A DNA stretch of 21,603 nt from a virus (lineage: Duplodnaviria > Heunggongvirae > Uroviricota > Caudoviricetes): the IMG/VR virus record IMGVR_UViG_2778261535_000006, positions 1 to 21,603 of that record; one strand, given 5' to 3'. Of this stretch, positions 1-18,297 are shown one piece after another (positions within the stretch are counted from its first letter, which is position 1; each line of letters opens with the position of its first letter). The notes beneath the pieces are model-generated. The model worked only from the letters and a program-made list of their open reading frames with translations, ran no database searches and had not been told where the DNA came from. The position numbers were made by a program, and so were the translations under genes.

Positions 1-1511
1 ACATACTGATAGCCAGCAATTTTTTCCTGTAAGGATTTAATCTTACTTTTCTGCTCGTCAATTAACCTGTTCTGCTCCTCCAGAGCCTGCCGCGTCTTTT
101 CTTCATTATCTGCCGCTTCAGGAAGTGACATTGCAGACGTTTTCTGGCGAATTTCGTCGATTGTTGCGGCATACTGACGAGCTGATTCTCTGGCCTGCTC
201 CTGGTTCTGATACATTGTGTACCAGGCCGCCGCCCCCAGCATGACAAGTCCAGGCACACCACCAACCAGCCCCAGAGCACCACTTAACAACCGACTACTA
301 ACTGACGTAACGTTATTCAGCGTTGCCTGTGCCGCTGTTCTGGCAGCAATATTACGGGTAAGTGAAGCCTGTGCGGTTGCCAGTTTCGCTTCTGCTGCAG
401 CCTGTTTTTCTGTACCACGGGCAGCCACAACCGCCTGCTGCGCACGATACAATGCCGCCCGCGCTCTGGCTGTAGCTATCTGTGTCCCTCTGAGCTGTGC
501 CTCAGCAAGAGCCACTTCGTTTCTGGCAGCAGTGATTAACCCGGCAGTTGCAGAGCCCGCAGAGGACGCCATATTGCCAAAATATCGGGCTACACCAATT
601 GCAACCAGAGCTCCCGCCGCCGTGGCAACCGTATCAATATTATTCGCAACACCATTCATTATTCCGGTAAGCGTTTTCGTTGCACCGCTGGCATCATTCG
701 CACCACCAACCCAGGCCATAAAGGCGTTTTCAACTTTGGTTGCAGAGGATGATACGGTATCAGGCATGGCTGCATATTCATCCCGCAGCGTACCAAGCTG
801 GCTAATCAGTGCAGGAACAACCTTATCGGCGGTCAGCTTTCCATCATCCGCCATTGCCTTCAGATCTTTACGGGCAACCCCCATTCCTGCAGCCAGAGCA
901 CGAATAACACGATCACCGCTTTCATTTACTGAATTAAACTCTTCACCGCGCAGAACCCCTTGCGCCAGTGCCTGGCTGAACTGAGTGATCACCGAGCTGG
1001 CTTCCGCAGAACTGGCTCCGGACAATTTCAATCCTGTAGAAATGGCCTCGGTAACTTTCAGTACTTCCTCAGACCTGTAACCATATTCCCGCATAGAAGA
1101 AGCCGAACGTGCAAAAAGACTGGCGTTATCAGCAAAAGCAGTACCCGTTCTCTGGCTGATCGCCATCAATTCGCGCTGTGATGCCTGGAAATCATCGCTG
1201 GACTGCGTGGCCTGCTTCAGACGGGCATTTACTGAACTCCATTCATCCGCAAGAGATATAAGATGTCCAGTGGCAAAAGCACCGGCAAATGCGCCAGCCA
1301 TATTCAGTGCCGAAGACTTCGCCGTATTTATCTGCTCGGTCACTTCTGCCAGTGCTCGCCGCATATCACGGGATGCAGCTGCAGACTGTCGACCTCCGTT
1401 CTGCATGGTACGGTAGTACTCCTGTCCCATACGTGAAGCTCGCGCAATTTCTGACTGGAATGACTGCGAATTTGCCGAGATTTTTATAATCAGTTCGCGT
1501 AGTGACGCCAT
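1..1511 (-). CDS. Tail tape measure protein, N-terminal ~500 codons (gene continues past the window start)
   Basis: Minus-strand frame opens with ATG at 1511..1509 (MASLRELIIKISANSQSFQ...) preceded by GGAG 8 nt upstream, and runs without a stop to position 1. Ala/Gln-rich with a Gly-rich hydrophobic segment (GALGLVGGVPGLVMLGAAAW), directly downstream of the G/GT chaperone pair. Not in the ORF track because it is truncated by the window edge. Confidence 0.7.
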   Translation of the reverse strand, partial: MASLRELIIKISANSQSFQSEIARASRMGQEYYRTMQNGGRQSAAASRDMRRALAEVTEQINTAKSSALNMAGAFAGAFATGHLISLADEWSSVNARLKQATQSSDDFQASQRELMAISQRTGTAFADNASLFARSASSMREYGYRSEEVLKVTEAISTGLKLSGASSAEASSVITQFSQALAQGVLRGEEFNSVNESGDRVIRALAAGMGVARKDLKAMADDGKLTADKVVPALISQLGTLRDEYAAMPDTVSSSATKVENAFMAWVGGANDASGATKTLTGIMNGVANNIDTVATAAGALVAIGVARYFGNMASSAGSATAGLITAARNEVALAEAQLRGTQIATARARAALYRAQQAVVAARGTEKQAAAEAKLATAQASLTRNIAARTAAQATLNNVTSVSSRLLSGALGLVGGVPGLVMLGAAAWYTMYQNQEQARESARQYAATIDEIRQKTSAMSLPEAADNEEKTRQALEEQNRLIDEQKSKIKSLQEKIAGYQY

Positions 1512-1525
1512 TCTCGTTCTCCAGG

Positions 1526-1556
1526 CAAAAAAAAACCGCCGAAGCGGTTTTTGCTT
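1526..1556 (-). terminator. Intrinsic terminator after the moron gene, before the tape measure gene
   Basis: Stem AACCGC / GCGGTT with loop CGAA (1534..1549), flanked by an A-run (1526..1535) and a T-run (1548..1557); on the minus strand the hairpin is followed by nine U. Confidence 0.6.
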
Positions 1557-1898
1557 TTAAAGAAGCCCAGCCTTACGCCTTGCTTCTTCAAGATATTCAT
1601 CATCCGTTTTTTGCGAAACGGTACTATCAGGGTTATGTGTTAAATCACTACCGCAATGCTTACACTTAATGGCTTCTTCTTTGATCAACTCCGCACAGTA
1701 AGGGCATTTTTTCATGCCATTGCTCACCATTTGTTGCTCATGCGTTTTTTCATCTTTTTGGATTACAAGTGAATGAACCAGGGCAACGATAAAGAGTAAG
1801 GCTCCGTATATCCACCATCCCCAAAATGAACGCCCTTTACTTTGCGCGATAATAGCCGGAATTAACCCCAAGACTAGCGCAATAAGAATAACTTCCAT
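1557..1898 (-). CDS. Small membrane protein with C-terminal zinc-ribbon (CPYC...CKHC); moron-like accessory gene
   Basis: ATG at 1898 with AAGGAG 6 nt upstream; two N-terminal hydrophobic helices (VILIALVLGLIPAIIA, WIYGALLFIVALVHSLVI), then Cys-x2-Cys...Cys-x2-Cys. Inserted between the GT chaperone and tape measure genes and followed by its own terminator. Confidence 0.6.
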   Translation of the reverse strand: MEVILIALVLGLIPAIIAQSKGRSFWGWWIYGALLFIVALVHSLVIQKDEKTHEQQMVSNGMKKCPYCAELIKEEAIKCKHCGSDLTHNPDSTVSQKTDDEYLEEARRKAGLL

Positions 1899-1956
1899 CA
1901 ATATCTCCTTATTTACTTAATAAAAATCGGAATCATAATCCAGTAAAGTAAGAAGA

Positions 1957-2639
1957 TCATTGTGTCGCTGCAAATAATGCATTTTCAAACGCAGTGAACG
2001 GATCTTTAATATTATTTGCAGGAACGACCTCCCACTGAAGAATCGCTTCATTCAGTGGAACTTTGACACCCTGCGCCCCGTAAACTGCAGAAACTATCTG
2101 GGCAGCCCGGATATCAGCCCGCTCGTCACCCAGCGGGCTGATCCTGTCAAATTCTGCCCACATCATGATTTCCGATGCAGACATTTCCCGGCGTAACTCT
2201 GACAATGTGCGCCCCATCCTGAGCGCCAGCATCATCAGAAAACGAATACCCGGAAGTGCTACTTTTTTTTAATAACTTCAGCATCAGTGATCAGTTCCAG
2301 TGACTGACGAAGCAGTCGTGCATGTACCGGACCATATACTGTAAGTACCTGCTCCCGATCATCCGCTGAAAACACGGGTTGCATCCCGGTATCACACAGA
2401 ACATCGATGAACAGTTCAACATCCGCTTCAAGATTTCGGCGGGCACGCTCCGCAACTGATAACGGTGTATCATCATCTCCGGTTTTAACGATCTCCTGCC
2501 AACGTAACCAGGCTTCTGCAGAGGGTTCCCGTAATACAACCGTTGTACCTTCCCACTCAGGAACATCAACTGTTTTGTGGCGAAAACCAGACATCGTCGC
2601 CAGTGCCAGATTGCGGATATTTTTAGACATAGATTTCAT
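1957..2639 (-). CDS. Tail assembly chaperone G-T fusion product made by -1 programmed frameshift
   Basis: Heptamer A AAA AAG at minus 2268..2262, directly before the G stop codon (2261..2259). The -1 frame continues open (KKVALPGIRFLMMLALRMGR...) to the stop at 1957, the same frame as track ORF 1957..2235. Confidence 0.6.
2259..2639 (-). CDS. Tail assembly chaperone (lambda gpG-like)
   Basis: 126-aa ORF immediately downstream of the major tail gene, AAGGAGG RBS before ATG 2639, ends ...EVIKKK* on a slippery A-AAA-AAG run; position and size match G-type chaperones. Confidence 0.7.
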   Translation of the reverse strand: MKSMSKNIRNLALATMSGFRHKTVDVPEWEGTTVVLREPSAEAWLRWQEIVKTGDDDTPLSVAERARRNLEADVELFIDVLCDTGMQPVFSADDREQVLTVYGPVHARLLRQSLELITDAEVIKKK

Positions 2640-2644
2640 CCTCC

Positions 2645-3349
2645 TTAACTGACAGTTACGGTGCAGGAAGTGGAGGTCACCTTATTAACCGGGCTTGCTG
2701 AATCAGAAACCTCACAGGTATACGCACCGGCATCTCCGGATGTCACGGAGGCCTTGTTGAAAGTTGCCGATGTCTGCCCGGAAACTGGAGAGCTGCCTTT
2801 CTTCCAGACATATGAATAAGGAGGCACACCACCTGATGCCTCAACAGACATATTCAGCGTTTCACTGGCAGAAACCTGTAGTGTACTTTTCAAATCAGAG
2901 AGGAGTTTCAAAGGTTCAGTGGTCAGAGAGGGCTTTCCTTTCAGGCGCAGGGAAAATGTGGCAGCAACAACACCGTTGGTTCCCACAGACCAGGTATGCT
3001 GGCGAACTTCTGCCATAAAGGTAAATCCATTTCCTGACGGGAAAATAACTTTGAAACCGTATGTGGTGTCGTTGTCATAAGCACTACGCAACGCGTTCTG
3101 GGCAGCGTTGAGATAAAAGTTTCCTGACATGGAAATCTCTGAAGCAGCCCCAAGACCGTTGATATTCTCCTGCTCGGTAGAACACAGCGTAGTGACATCA
3201 ATATCCTGTTTCTGCCCGGCGGTAAACTGAACCTCTTTAATCGTACAGCTCAGTTCAAGAAAACTGGCAGAACTCAGCGTTTCTGCCGTTACCGGTGCAG
3301 ACGAGATCATGACTTTGGTCTGCTGAGAACGTTCAAAATTAGAGGACAT
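2645..3349 (-). CDS. Major tail protein with C-terminal Ig-like (Big_2-type) domain
   Basis: Start taken at ATG 3349 (MSSNFERS...) with GGAG 7 nt upstream rather than the track start at 3400. C-terminal ~80 aa Ser/Thr-rich with the Ig-like pattern PPYSYVWKKG...GAYTCEVSD...CTVTV. Sits between tail completion genes and the G/GT pair. Confidence 0.7.
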   Translation of the reverse strand: MSSNFERSQQTKVMISSAPVTAETLSSASFLELSCTIKEVQFTAGQKQDIDVTTLCSTEQENINGLGAASEISMSGNFYLNAAQNALRSAYDNDTTYGFKVIFPSGNGFTFMAEVRQHTWSVGTNGVVAATFSLRLKGKPSLTTEPLKLLSDLKSTLQVSASETLNMSVEASGGVPPYSYVWKKGSSPVSGQTSATFNKASVTSGDAGAYTCEVSDSASPVNKVTSTSCTVTVS

Positions 3350-3361
3350 ACTCGTCTCCTG

Positions 3362-3387
3362 AAAATAAAAAACCCGCCAGCGGCGGG
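3362..3387 (-). terminator. Terminator-like hairpin plus U-run immediately upstream of the major tail gene RBS
   Basis: Minus strand: CCCGCC-GCT-GGCGGG (3373..3387) followed by TTTTTTATTTT, then CAGGAG and ATG 3349. Confidence 0.45.
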
Positions 3388-3408
3388 TGGGTAAAATCAT
3401 TAACGACC

Positions 3409-5112: not shown

Positions 5113-5710
5113 TCTTCAGCAGTTTGATGGCCTGCGAATCGACCAGCATGCCGCCGGTGCGCTTGGTGGTATAAAAACCGACAAACGGTTTATTGGTGTA
5201 CGGGTCGCGCAGAATGCGGGTGCCGATACGGTCAACGATGGTGTAACCCCGTTTGAAGTTACCAAATGCAATAGCTTTCGCATCCGCAGCGATATCCGGC
5301 ATCTGCTCGTTTTCAGCGATACCGTAACCCGCCAGAGAGGACGGTTGCCCCAGTTCCAGCCCCGGACGCCACAGATAATTACCCTCGGTGTCTTTCAGCA
5401 GACGGATGGCAAACAGGCTGTTGTTGTTCATCATGAACTTCGCACCAGTGCGGTGTGCCTTACGCAGCGTGTAAATCAGTTTGATAACGGCGTCTGCGGT
5501 CACCGTCGTCGCTTCGCCGGATACAATATGCTGAAGTTTGCCGAACGCACGAACATTATCGGTTTCATCGGTGGATTCATACGCCAGGAACCCTTTCGGC
5601 TTCTTGGTACCATCGCCGGTGGTAAAGGCAATTTCTTCCTGTTCGGCAAATTCGGTTGCCAGCTCGCTGTTGATCCAGGCTTCCACGTTGAAAAAGGCAT
5701 CATCCAGCAT
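5099..5710 (-). pseudogene. Major capsid protein (HK97 fold), C-terminal ~200 codons only
   Basis: Begins mid-protein at the HK97-family motif E.EE.AF..GDG..KP.GFL ([21 protein letters not shown]) and ends ...FVGFYTTKRTGGMLVDSQAIKLLKIAAA. Upstream in this frame is terminase DNA read out of frame, so the N-terminal half of the capsid protein is absent. Confidence 0.6.
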
Positions 5711-7416
5711 TTTCTGGGTGGCCTGCGGTCTTCTTTCTCGTACAGCATGGCTCTGCCAACCGCCATAATCAGCGCAACTGCACCATCGATTTTGTTTTCC
5801 GCCTGCTCTTTGACGGGCTTCACCACATCATCGTTACCCGGAATGGTTTTGCCGACCACGTTGCCGATACACCAGGTCATGATGGGATTGCCATCATGAT
5901 GAAAGCGCCCCGATTCAATTGCCGCTTCCAGCTCTTTCATCGGGTCGGACATGTTGGTGTAGTTCTGAATGATAGTGATGGGGTTCAGGTCTTCATCAGC
6001 AAGGTCATGTGACAACCCGGTCGCCCCGAAGGGGTCGATGGGTGACTCACTGACCGGGCTGATTTTGTTCGCCGCTTTGGCCTCCTCGAGGATGTAGCGA
6101 TAATCCACCTCCGCACCATCGGTAACGGTCAGAACGCCCATTTCCACCCATTTCTGAAAGCGTTCGGCTGTCCGTCGATCTTCATTTTTCTCGACGCTGT
6201 ACACCGTGTCATACGGTACCCAGAAACGCGGGGCCACACTGTAGTAATGCGTTTTACCGTCAATCTCGCGGGTATAAAGTCGCGCCATGCTGTTCATATC
6301 CAGCTTACGCGCCAGGTCAAAGGCCAGAATGCACGGCTGCCCCTCGAACTGCTCAAGGGTCAGTGATTTATCCTCGCAGCTCTGCCAGCTCACCAGGTTG
6401 AAATACGCCGAACGCGCCGACACCCAGATATTGAGGTGTTTTGTTTTAAAGACGTTTGCCAGACGGGCGTTATTTTTCGCACGCTGCTGCTGACTTAACA
6501 AAAATTCGCGATAAACCGACACGCCAATATTCGGGTTAGCTTTTTCCAGCACCTGCGGGTCGGTCCAGTCATCGCCTTCGTCAACGGTATAGATGATCCC
6601 GAACAGTTCATCGTTGGGTACCGACCCGTTGAGCATCTCGATAACTTCCCGTCGCTTGTCGTAGCACGGCCCCTCAATGTTGTACCCGGCAGTAGTAATG
6701 GCCCACATCAGTGGCTGACGTCGCGCCCCCATCCCGGTAAGCATCGTGGTGTAAAGCGCATCGGTGGCGTGCTCGTGATATTCATCCACCACCGCACAGT
6801 GGGGTGATGAACCATCACCGGGGTTACCGATCAGCGGTTCAAACCGCGCGCCATCCTCCGGACGATTCATGTTTGAGGCGTTAACCTCAATCCCGAACGC
6901 TTCCGTCAGCATGGGTGTGCGTTTACACATCAGTCTTGCCGGACGAAAGACTTCCCATGCCTGTTTCTCCGTCGTGGCACCGGAATACACTTCCGCGCCG
7001 AACTCGTTATCACAGGCAAAACAATACAGGGCGACACCGGCAGAGATTGCTGATTTGCCGTTCTTACGGGGGATTTCGGTATACACCTCCCGGAAGCGGC
7101 GCAGCCGGGAGCCTTTATTGACCCAGCCAAACGCGCAGCAGATCACAAAGAGCTGCCACGGCTCCAGCGTGATGGGCATCCTCTTGAATGCCCACTCACC
7201 CTTGGTGTGCGGCAACAGCTGAATAAATTTGGCGGCCCGTTCAGCCAGGTCCTTGTCGAAGCGGTAACGAAACGACTTACTTTTTTCCGCCATCAGGTCA
7301 TCAAGATGGCGCTGGCAGGCCTGAATCACAAACTGGCAGGCCACAATCTTTCCGCGCACAACATCACGGGCATACTGATTGGCAGCATTTACGTTGGGGT
7401 AAGATTTCCGGCTCAT
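5500..7416 (-). CDS. Terminase large subunit; 3' end is abnormal and reads out of frame ~70 codons into the capsid remnant
   Basis: 638-aa ORF, ATGA overlap with the small terminase stop. Terminase-like through ...[22 protein letters not shown], then low-complexity Pro/Arg/Trp-rich text ([19 protein letters not shown]...) that is capsid DNA in the wrong frame. Confidence 0.8.
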
Positions 7417-10712: not shown

Positions 10713-11402
10713 TTAATCCAGTTTTGCAATACTTTGCTGTGAAAATGTGGTCTTTTGTTTTGAACGTGTTTTCGTTAAAAGCAATAAAGCTTGGCTATCA
10801 AGCTGTAGAAAAATGTGCTTCATTGCAACCCAGCGTTCAGTAAATGTCTCAGACCAGTTTTTTGATGTCACTCCCACCAGTAATGCCAGCTCCTGGTATT
10901 CATAGGTCTTACGCCCTGCCAGCTCGTTCTTCACATCCTGTGCCGCCAACCAGATCAACTTCTTTAAGCGCTCCAGTGTCTTACTGGCAATTTTTCTTGT
11001 ACCTAACAGCGCCTTAAACTCGCTCCATGCCCACTGCGTTATGGCAACCTGATGCTCCCAGCGAATATTTTCACTGTAACTCCACAGCAACCACGCTTTC
11101 TGATGTTCATCGAGAGACAAAATCGCACGCCGCCACGAAGAGGTTGAAAACTCGACCGAACTGACCAGGGTGACAGATGAACCTTTTGCGTAGGACTGTT
11201 TACCGGAAATCGGCGGATTATCCAGCGTAATCATCTTGCCAGTTACCACATCCAGAATGCGCGGCTTCTTTCGTTTGTATGTACCAGTATCAAATTGTGC
11301 ATGCTCCAGCCAGGCTTCAAGCTGGCCTTTCATTGCTCCGCTCAAATCAGCGGTAGCCACCATGAGTTGCTCGCGGACATACTGTAAATATTGGGTATTC
11401 AT
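10713..11402 (-). CDS. Putative late-gene antiterminator (Q-like, not lambda Q-type)
   Basis: 229-aa ORF between rusA and the lysis cassette, followed by a ~310-bp non-coding region carrying terminator hairpins, as in the lambda Q-pR'-tR'-S arrangement. Call is positional; the sequence does not resemble lambda Q. Confidence 0.45.
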   Translation of the reverse strand: MNTQYLQYVREQLMVATADLSGAMKGQLEAWLEHAQFDTGTYKRKKPRILDVVTGKMITLDNPPISGKQSYAKGSSVTLVSSVEFSTSSWRRAILSLDEHQKAWLLWSYSENIRWEHQVAITQWAWSEFKALLGTRKIASKTLERLKKLIWLAAQDVKNELAGRKTYEYQELALLVGVTSKNWSETFTERWVAMKHIFLQLDSQALLLLTKTRSKQKTTFSQQSIAKLD

Positions 11403-16595: not shown

Positions 16596-16624
16596 ATAAT
16601 AGCAATGCGTATTAACCATGGCAA
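16596..16624 (-). promoter_or_regulatory. Putative pR (early rightward-equivalent promoter driving the cro-like operon)
   Basis: Minus strand: -35 TTGCCA (16624..16619), 17-nt spacer, -10 TATTAT (16601..16596), ~30 nt upstream of the cro-like start; overlapped by a palindromic operator candidate. Confidence 0.5.
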
Positions 16625-16662
16625 TAGCAAAACGTGTTTTGACCATCAATACGCAAGCGTAT
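16598..16662. promoter_or_regulatory. OR-like operator cluster between the cro-like and repressor genes
   Basis: Imperfect palindromes TAATAGCAATGCGTATTA (16598..16615) and ATACGCAAGCGTAT (16649..16662) plus AATAGCAA at 16623..16630; the same AATAGCAAT motif recurs at the OL-like site. Confidence 0.4.
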
Positions 16663-16674
16663 AAATTAAAACTT

Positions 16675-17367
16675 ATGAAAAAAGAAACTCTTGCTGATCG
16701 CTTAAACCTAGCGATGGAACAATCTGGGATGTCTCAAGGCGCTCTTGCAAAGGCGTCTGGCGTAGCTCAACCCACAATCTGGAGACTGACAAGCGGCAAC
16801 GCGCGCGGCTCAACAAAAATTGTTGAAATAGCTAATGCATTGGGTGTTCGAACAGAGTGGCTCTCATCAGGCATAGGCCCGATGAGAAATGACGGTCAAC
16901 AATCAGGGAAGCCTACTGTCAACCATTCCAAATACTTCAAGATTGACGTTCTTGATATAGAAGTGAGTGCCGGGCCGGGAGTCATCAACCGTGAGTTTGT
17001 AGAAGTCCTACGCTCGGTTGAGTACTCGTTTGACGATGCTCGTCACATGTTCGATGGCAGGAAGGCGGAAAATATCCGCATCATTAACGTGCGTGGTGAC
17101 AGCATGTCAGGAACGATCGAACCAGGTGATCTGCTGTTCGTTGATATCACGGTTAAATCTTTCGACGGTGATGGCATCTATGCGTTTCTGTACGACGACA
17201 CCGCCCATGTAAAGCGCCTGCAAATGATGAAGGATAAGCTGCTGGTTATCTCTGATAACAAGAGCTACTCACCGTGGGACCCGATCGAGAAAGACGAGAT
17301 GAACCGGGTGTTCATCTTCGGTAAGGTTATTGGGAGCATGCCCCAGACGTACAGGAAACATGGATAA
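16675..17367 (+). CDS. CI-like prophage repressor (N-terminal HTH, C-terminal S24 LexA-like autopeptidase)
   Basis: HTH MSQGALAKASGVAQPTIWRL; peptidase motifs GDSM (Ser) and HVKRLQ (Lys). Start uncertain: ATG 16675 (MKKETLADRL...) has no SD and may be leaderless, whereas the track start 16618 lies inside the putative pR -35. Confidence 0.8.
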   Translation: MKKETLADRLNLAMEQSGMSQGALAKASGVAQPTIWRLTSGNARGSTKIVEIANALGVRTEWLSSGIGPMRNDGQQSGKPTVNHSKYFKIDVLDIEVSAGPGVINREFVEVLRSVEYSFDDARHMFDGRKAENIRIINVRGDSMSGTIEPGDLLFVDITVKSFDGDGIYAFLYDDTAHVKRLQMMKDKLLVISDNKSYSPWDPIEKDEMNRVFIFGKVIGSMPQTYRKHG

Positions 17368-17433: not shown

Positions 17434-18297
17434 ATGGATTGTGACGCTTTACAGGATATAAAAATCTCTCTTAGGTATGACGGAAAAGATGCTTTAAATC
17501 ATGAAATAGATTTGAACTGCCTAGGAGAATCCCTAAAGGGTTTTTCTAAAGTTCTCTCAACAGCAGCTTCTTTCTCTGTTACACAAAAATATAGTAAATA
17601 CATTAATTATCAGGAAGTTAAGGTTTACGCACGCGAAGCAAAAGCTAACTGCTTTACTCTTGAAGCAGTTCTTAACTTCGCCACTCAGAACCAGTTGTTC
17701 TCGGGGATCGCCGCAACTATACTTGGCGCAATACTACAATATATTTTTGCGAGAAATTCTAACAAGAAAGATGAAATGAAAGCTTTGCAGCAGTCACTTG
17801 AAAAGGCCATAGAGGCACTAGGAAACAAGGATGCTGGAACCATTGATAAGTTGATCTCTTTGATTGACCGAATGGCTGTAGAGCTTCGCCCCTCTGTAAG
17901 GCAGGCAGTATCACCTATTGGTAATACTTGCGATCAGATAAGTGTTGCAACAAATGTTGACGGCTGCCTTCTAAAAGTTAACGAGAGAGATAAAGCTGAA
18001 ATTGATAGGCTTGATGATGATGAAGTTCTCGGTCTTCGTGAGTATCGTGCTTTTCTTACAGAATTTGATGCACAAAATATGACAGCTAAAATAATTTTAG
18101 ATGGTGATGACTCAAAAAAGAGAATCACTGCTGAAATTAGCGATCCAGCTGCAGGAAAGAAGAATAACCCGTATATTAGAGCTCTTAGTGCATATATATC
18201 AACCAAAGGTGATCCATCTGCAGTATTCACTATAACCGCAAAGGCTACTGTTAAAAAAGGCCAGATAAACAGGTTATTTATTGTAGATGCGAAATGA
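17434..18297 (+). CDS. Hypothetical 287-aa protein, AT-rich, in the rexAB position downstream of the repressor
   Basis: Clean ORF with its own terminator; one central hydrophobic segment ([19 protein letters not shown]) followed by a predicted helical Lys/Glu-rich region; no motif I recognise. Spot counts on three 60-nt lines give 40%, 42% and 28% GC. Confidence 0.7.

Follow-up and report, generated by a model that had tools for sequence, protein, structure and literature searches.

The window, a stretch of 21,603 nucleotides from a Caudoviricetes record in IMG/VR, carries part of a tail operon on its minus strand (Table 1). Between the G/GT pair, whose T part is reached by a -1 frameshift, and the tape measure gene (TMP) lies a small gene that we refer to as ZR. 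An earlier interpretation of this DNA, made from its letters without database searches (the sequence-only reading), had described here a protein of 113 residues with two N-terminal transmembrane (TM) helices, a CPYC...CKHC zinc ribbon and a strong ribosome binding site. This description was borne out, with the gene on the minus strand and an AAGGAG sequence 6 nt ahead of the start codon. The ATG matches the ME... N-termini of homologues; the list of open reading frames also offers an alternative TTG one codon further 5'. On the other side of G, the major tail gene (2645-3400, minus strand) encodes a protein with a C-terminal Ig-like domain (Ig_2/Ig_3; phrog_158), and its longest open reading frame begins 5' of the start annotated in relatives.

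Table 1. Coordinates of the features discussed in the text, in window numbering.
Feature	Position	Strand	Description	Basis
TMP, 5' part	1..1511	-	Tape measure gene; runs off the window	TMP_3 + Phage_HK97_TLTM
Intrinsic terminator hairpin	1527..1552	-	AAAAACCGCTTCGGCGGTTTTT + T-run; between ZR stop and TMP start	
Exchangeable cassette	1553..2029	-	~480 bp, low GC; last ~24 T codons + promoter + ZR	
ZR gene	1557..1898	-	113 aa; ATG 1898..1896, TAA 1559..1557	ORF list, Pfam, PHROG, AlphaFold2, dN/dS
Shine-Dalgarno AAGGAG	1905..1910	-	6 nt 5' of the ZR ATG	Read from sequence
Promoter-like element	1932..1960	-	-35 ATGATC 1960..1955, 17-nt spacer, -10 TATGAT 1937..1932	
T part of G/GT	1957..2235	-	-1 frame relative to G	Phage_tail_T, 2e-17
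G, tail assembly chaperone	2259..2639	-		Phage_TAC_1, 8.6e-57
Slippery site A AAA AAG	~2268..2262	-	3' end of G; -1 frameshift	
Second terminator-like hairpin	3372..3388	-	ACCCGCCGCTGGCGGGT + T-run; just 5' of major tail gene, as in HK97	
Lambda-type Q antiterminator	10713..11402	-		PF06323, 5e-92

ZR encodes a conserved, predicted membrane protein with a zinc ribbon

The predicted ZR protein has an N-terminal TM hairpin (residues ~2-21 and 25-45), which a linker connects to a Cys4 zinc ribbon; a charged helix lies at the C-terminal end. The ribbon cysteines are C65 and C68 (CPYC) and C79 and C82 (CKHC), and Pfam recognizes residues 62-86 as Zn_ribbon_3 (PF13248) with 34.6 bits against a cut-off of 27. 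The AlphaFold2 model (mean pLDDT 75.5) follows the same layout. Two long helices (2-21 and 25-45) are followed by a short one and then by a beta ribbon (62-73), and residues 99-109 form the C-terminal helix; the small beta ribbon with its four cysteines is of the beta-hairpin type. Nearly the entire protein (residues 1-111 of 113) aligns with positions 1-108 of 110 of the PHROG profile phrog_8436 (3.2e-51). This profile is labelled "unknown function", so membership gives ZR no mechanism.

Other comparisons returned little beyond the ribbon. NCBIfam gave sub-threshold ribbon matches only (e.g., TcaA, 19.7 bits against a 550-bit cut-off), and PADLOC gave only zinc-ribbon noise (HEase, 5e-5; LmuB, 3e-3). 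The family profile had 0 matches among PDB sequences. Foldseek with the ZR model found nothing in the PDB at E <= 1e-3, the best matches being 25-residue ribbons of the RanBP2/NZF type at E ~0.2, and its only matches in BFVD were two unannotated "zinc-ribbon containing" phage proteins. Our literature search found no functional study of any family member. The sequence-only reading had proposed a superinfection-exclusion gene and had named homology to a virion structural protein as grounds for giving that up; the Pfam, PHROG, PDB and BFVD comparisons revealed no such homology.

The family is large. A word-indexed search identified 1,761 homologues at E <= 1e-3, and an exhaustive profile search yielded 297 clusters (at 50% identity) at E <= 1e-30 and 3,939 at E <= 1e-10. 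Members are common in prophages of Escherichia, Salmonella, Cronobacter, Enterobacter, Klebsiella, Serratia and Pseudomonas, and some copies lie outside recognizable prophages. Relatives carry C-terminal additions that include extra ribbons and TPR, HEAT, HIRAN, SHOCT and YARHG domains. Across IMG/VR loci, the median pairwise dN/dS is 0.065 for ZR, compared to 0.158 for T and 0.215 for G. Together with the size of the family, these ratios rule out a spurious open reading frame; by the substitution pattern, ZR is a genuine gene that purifying selection strongly constrains. Across 85 sequences, 17 columns do not vary, among them G11, P14, W28, W29, H42 and the four cysteines. Such high conservation in the membrane helices suggests that they pack in a specific way or bind a partner and are not a passive anchor.

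ZR lies in an exchangeable cassette between T and TMP

Morons, in the Juhala/Hendrix definition restated in PMC3594210, are extra DNA that is present in some and absent from other closely related phage genomes. Deviant base composition, a promoter and terminator of their own and expression from the repressed prophage are further criteria (PMC3594210). We inspected the T-TMP interval in the 80 IMG/VR tail modules closest to the window, in which G is at least 87% identical. The slot is empty in 66 of the 80, with T and TMP separated by just 45-47 nt, hairpin included. A ZR gene is present in 12, with three alleles whose identity to that of the window is 100, 86 and 71%, and the other two contain an unrelated lipoprotein, also of 113 residues. 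These two modules (L116, 3742-4083, and L133) have near-identical backbones; their lipoprotein, MRKSVVTLACLFFISAC..., is followed by its own hairpin and has no match in Pfam. The phage phi467 has the empty form of the slot, and Evi, likewise deposited as a phage, is without ZR. Among 5,426 complete E. coli genomes, 901 contain the G/T flank and only 44 the full segment.

These comparisons also define the borders of the cassette, which stands in for ~43 nt of the empty-slot relatives. Homology to phi467-type sequences ends at window position 2030. The right-hand junction is the start of the hairpin and is common to all variants, while the left-hand junction falls inside the last 11-24 codons of T. 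GC content is 0.385-0.43 across positions 1500-2100, against ~0.51-0.54 on either side. Presence and absence in near-identical backbones, the dip in GC and a conserved promoter-like element (see below) uphold the earlier claim that the ZR cassette is a moron, which we consider highly probable. The slot itself is exchangeable: it can be empty or hold other ZR alleles, a lipoprotein or, in HK97, gp15. Because close relatives do without the gene, ZR is dispensable for the virion, and the empty-slot relatives rule out a structural or assembly role.

The prophage in the window is defective. Compared with an intact relative in E. coli FDAARGOS_497, it is missing 2,694 bp (window 5500-7416, junction at ~5725-5728). 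The deletion takes the capsid N-terminus, the prohead protease, the portal and ymfR, trims ~13 codons off the end of the large terminase and leaves a chimeric terminase-capsid open reading frame of 638 aa; the ZR gene is still intact. In a Cronobacter remnant (L190; GCA_050602645.1), a truncated TMP is joined to IMS/UmuC-like sequence, and the ZR gene just 5' of it is intact.

The terminator belongs to the T-TMP junction

The 45-nt spacer between ZR and TMP folds at -12.7 kcal/mol, and TMP starts 16 nt past the hairpin. The sequence-only reading credited ZR with a strong terminator of its own. A strong hairpin with a U-run is indeed present, but it is not specific to the cassette, since it is also found in empty-slot relatives and in HK97. 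In phi467 and the 66 IMG/VR loci with an empty slot, the hairpin AACCGCTTCGGCGG plus T-run sits at the T-TMP junction. Downstream of ZR, all 35 unique spacers contain a GC hairpin with a U-run, and the stem sequences vary on both arms (CCGC/GCGG, CCCCGC/GCGGGG and CCUCAC/GUGAGG, for example). The hairpin belongs to the T-TMP junction and forms the shared right-hand edge of every cargo variant.

A terminator directly ahead of TMP had also been called unusual, and this part of the earlier reading did not hold. HK97 is arranged alike, with one annotated terminator after gp15 directly ahead of TMP and another ahead of the major tail gene. The window likewise has a second hairpin, just 5' of its major tail gene, and it encodes Q (Table 1). 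In HK022, the T-TMP gap is only 19 nt. The hairpins that punctuate the tail operon look like a feature of the lineage. Textbook lambdoid late operons are read through by antitermination, and given the lambda-type Q in the window, read-through of the tail-operon hairpins is expected and ordinary.

A conserved promoter-like element precedes ZR

We aligned the regions upstream of ZR from loci whose flanking genes have diverged to ~50-60% identity. An element with the family-wide arrangement GTGACW-17-TARGAT emerged, of which ATGATC-17-TATGAT in the window is the lineage version. Of 47 distinct upstream regions, 46 contain its loose form (NTGAYN-17-TANKAT), compared to 0.18% (0.0018) of shuffles, and 38 contain the strict form. 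The element ends 27-34 nt 5' of the ZR ATG, and its spacer keeps a constant length across 27 distinct sequences. In the window, the -35 box contains the stop codon of T (TGA); across the family, this box is kept irrespective of whether it overlaps the T stop codon or is located 9 nt 3' of it. A generic consensus scan picked TTGAAA-18-CACAAT (1988..1959), which we set aside for the comparatively conserved element.

By its conservation, the element is the signature of a putative sigma-70 promoter of ZR's own. A promoter of this kind would allow ZR transcription to be uncoupled from the Q-dependent late operon, and we infer that ZR is expressed from the repressed prophage. Longer relatives of ZR, described in the next section, are preceded by extended -10 motifs (TGnTATGAT, TGnTAGTAT and TGnTACTAT) and have their own terminators.

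Relatives of ZR recur at two junctions of tail operons

In 76 of the 80 closest IMG/VR homologues of the short form (63-100% identical), the gene lies exactly between T and TMP. It holds this position even where the flanking genes are only ~50-60% identical, and a very common Cronobacter allele is likewise located there. In nearly all loci, the orientation of ZR is that of the late operon. Among distant phages, the same architecture occupies the slot between chaperone and TMP in Salmonella FSL SP-016 and, beside a BamE-like lipoprotein, in Pseudomonas D14C. It is also found in this slot in the Microcystis cyanophage Mae-JY04, on the opposite strand, and would therefore require its own promoter. 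In Pseudomonas phage YMC11/02/R656, the TAC-TMP slot encodes gp065, in which the same ribbon is fused to an Imm_superinfect domain (1.6e-18), and this combination of PF14373 and PF13248 is common.

Klebsiella ST846/ST11 prophage-phages also have the hairpin-plus-ribbon architecture in the chaperone-TMP slot. The ZR-like gene is a single one of 143 aa in ST846-OXA48phi9.2 and appears to be split into two adjacent open reading frames of 122 aa and 60 aa in ST11-VIM1phi8.2 (L010, 3483-4039), which suggests that one of these genes has suffered a frameshift or become a pseudogene.

A long form of the protein, 178-191 aa with an extra helical tail of ~80 aa, is found in prophages of Serratia, Atlantibacter and others, where its gene consistently lies between K and I in lambda-like tail-tip modules (loci L089-L091, L092, L094-L097 and L101-L104). 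A small lipoprotein gene sometimes adjoins the long-form gene there. In lambdoid tail operons, the T-TMP and K-I junctions serve as cargo docks with resident terminators at their borders, and viewing them in this way is useful for finding further accessory genes.

ZR resembles known exclusion proteins in position and architecture

HK97 carries gp15 at exactly the slot that ZR occupies, as the sequence-only reading had noted, followed by an annotated terminator right before TMP (PMC3594210). Gp15 inserts in the inner membrane and excludes superinfecting phage by a tail-dependent block to DNA entry (PMC3594210). Like gp15, ZR is a small predicted membrane protein encoded between G/GT and an HK97-type TMP with a terminator ahead of it, in the setting of a lambdoid late operon under Q control. 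The proteins themselves differ. Gp15 has 62 residues and matches YebO (PF13974, 1.2e-8), whereas the 113 residues of ZR form the hairpin, the Cys4 ribbon and a C-terminal helix. BLASTP found no homology between the two (E = 5 over 4 residues), and a Pfam search did not find PF13974 in ZR. With no shared sequence, the analogy is therefore one of position and architecture only.

T4 Imm binds TMP directly and blocks DNA entry (bioRxiv 10.64898/2026.03.06.709160). Imm and the Imm_superinfect family (PF14373) resemble ZR as small helical inner-membrane proteins. Imm_superinfect domains are often fused to the ribbon CPxCAExIxxxAxxCxxCG, the same as in the ZR family, and the end of TM1 in ZR resembles them in having a (L/I)PAIIA motif with a basic loop after it. 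T4 Imm itself, unlike ZR, is without a zinc ribbon. The idea that ZR is a divergent Imm_superinfect domain is not supported: Pfam gave no PF14373 match in ZR at E <= 1, and hhalign of the two TM-region profiles returned a probability of 11% (E = 0.0026).

Zn_ribbon_3/DZR membrane proteins (zinc ribbon-TM-YARHG, TcaA) share with ZR the PF13248 knuckle pattern beside a TM helix. However, their ribbon is N-terminal to a single TM helix and a large extracellular domain, whereas that of ZR follows the conserved hairpin in a protein without a large sensor domain. Prophage morons that target the TMP of invading phages are known: Tab recognizes its C-terminus (PMC10884400), and Tai systems block tail assembly (PMC11364771). 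ZR is not a Tab, Tai or Gifsy defence protein; these are unrelated, are not membrane proteins and are encoded elsewhere, Tab and Tai in between the genes for terminase or 5' of the packaging module.

The location of the ribbon relative to the membrane bears on its chemistry, because zinc binding by the predicted ribbon depends on which side it faces. Here, charge bias and fusion partners give conflicting evidence. The basic SKGRS loop and the signal-peptide or lipobox extensions of a few distant members favour a periplasmic ribbon. A cytoplasmic one is favoured by the zinc chemistry of Cys4 sites, by the abundance of K/R in the tail and by a relative in which the order is hairpin-ribbon-TM-YARHG. 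YARHG is an extracellular domain, and the ribbon of Zn_ribbon_3/DZR membrane proteins has been placed inside the cell by inference (PMC3355149). On these features, the cytoplasmic face is weakly favoured.

ZR may exclude superinfecting phages at genome entry

The best-supported reading, to which we assign a probability of about 0.4 (0.42), is that ZR is a prophage-expressed superinfection-exclusion protein acting at genome entry. This reading draws on a small, predicted membrane protein with a putative promoter of its own that is dispensable for the virion, is found repeatedly beside TMP and shares its ribbon with Imm-type proteins. It is also supported by the retention of an intact ZR gene in two degraded prophages, that of the window and the Cronobacter remnant. 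The moron cassette sets a putative promoter and a gene just 5' of a terminator already belonging to the T-TMP junction. In mechanistic terms, ZR would act in the manner of HK97 gp15 or T4 Imm. The hairpin, lodged in the inner membrane, might interfere with the channel of the incoming TMP or with the host partner of TMP, while the ribbon, most likely on the cytoplasmic face, would supply a protein- or DNA-binding surface. Because of its place next to TMP, an exclusion gene could stay in genetic linkage with the tail type that it is tuned to. Among close backbones, the ZR alleles of 100, 86 and 71% identity accompany TMPs that are 100, 93 and 93% identical; the alleles thus do not track TMP identity and give no sign of co-evolution between ZR and TMP. 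Against exclusion, the T-TMP slot may be no more than a hotspot where morons are tolerated.

A bolder extension would make hairpin-plus-ribbon proteins a widespread, unrecognised class of prophage exclusion proteins, convergent with the Imm_superinfect-ribbon fusions, in which the CPxCAExIKxEAxKCxxCG ribbon captures the TMP tip or the emerging DNA on the cytoplasmic side. We regard this as unlikely. If true, such capture would be a mechanistically new stop to genome delivery, and the specificity of exclusion would travel with the tail type.

The size of the family also fits a different role. The hairpin-plus-ribbon core defines a broad bacterial family (the 297 clusters above), some of its copies are found outside prophages, and its C-terminal additions are varied. 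ZR might then be a lysogenic-conversion membrane protein unrelated to exclusion, such as a membrane-tethered zinc-ribbon regulator or adaptor, that benefits the lysogen by altering how its genes are expressed, how envelope stress is answered or how a host transporter works. Coggill and Bateman proposed that proteins combining a PF13248-type ribbon with a TM helix are membrane-tethered transcription factors (PMC3355149). Yet the architecture recurs in tail operons of unrelated phages, beside TMP or tail-tip genes, and the same slot accommodates an Imm_superinfect version. The other cargoes of the slot, gp15 and lipoproteins, are moreover envelope proteins typical of exclusion. Conversion without exclusion seems to us rather unlikely.

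Proximity to TMP would suit an activity directed at TMP after entry just as well as one at the membrane. Much like Tab or Tai, ZR could sense or poison the TMP or the tail assembly of an invader, or it could abort infection at the membrane, without blocking DNA entry, and prophage morons that target TMP do exist (Tab, PMC10884400; Tai, PMC11364771). However, Tab and Tai are located elsewhere, are unrelated to ZR and are not membrane proteins, whereas the conserved hairpin of ZR points to action at the membrane, the site of entry. No partner gene for counter-defence is evident in the slot either, and we consider post-entry defence quite improbable.

Very unlikely is a non-essential helper of the lytic cycle, expressed mainly within the late operon, that would assist at the membrane in handling the tail or TMP or would stop progeny from injecting into lysing or infected cells. 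Late-operon orientation in nearly all loci, residence in the slot long enough for the flanks to diverge to ~50% identity and conservation exceeding that of G or T would agree with it, but ZR is missing from 66 of the 80 closest relatives, including the phage deposits phi467 and Evi, has a conserved putative promoter of its own, lies on the opposite strand in the cyanophage and persists intact in prophages unable to make virions.

Were ZR to exclude phages, a large family (hundreds of clusters at 50% identity) would join gp15, Imm and SieA as proteins acting at entry. Exclusion by ZR would also provide a handle on how TMP crosses the inner membrane and help to explain host-range failures of phage therapy against lysogens. 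If it does not exclude phages, ZR is an ordinary moron.

Elsewhere in the window, a gene for a 287-aa protein with DUF7946 and DUF7947 (17434-18297, plus strand) directly follows that of a CI-like repressor (16618-17367), in the position of rexAB in lambda. Its product could be a second defence protein expressed in the lysogen.
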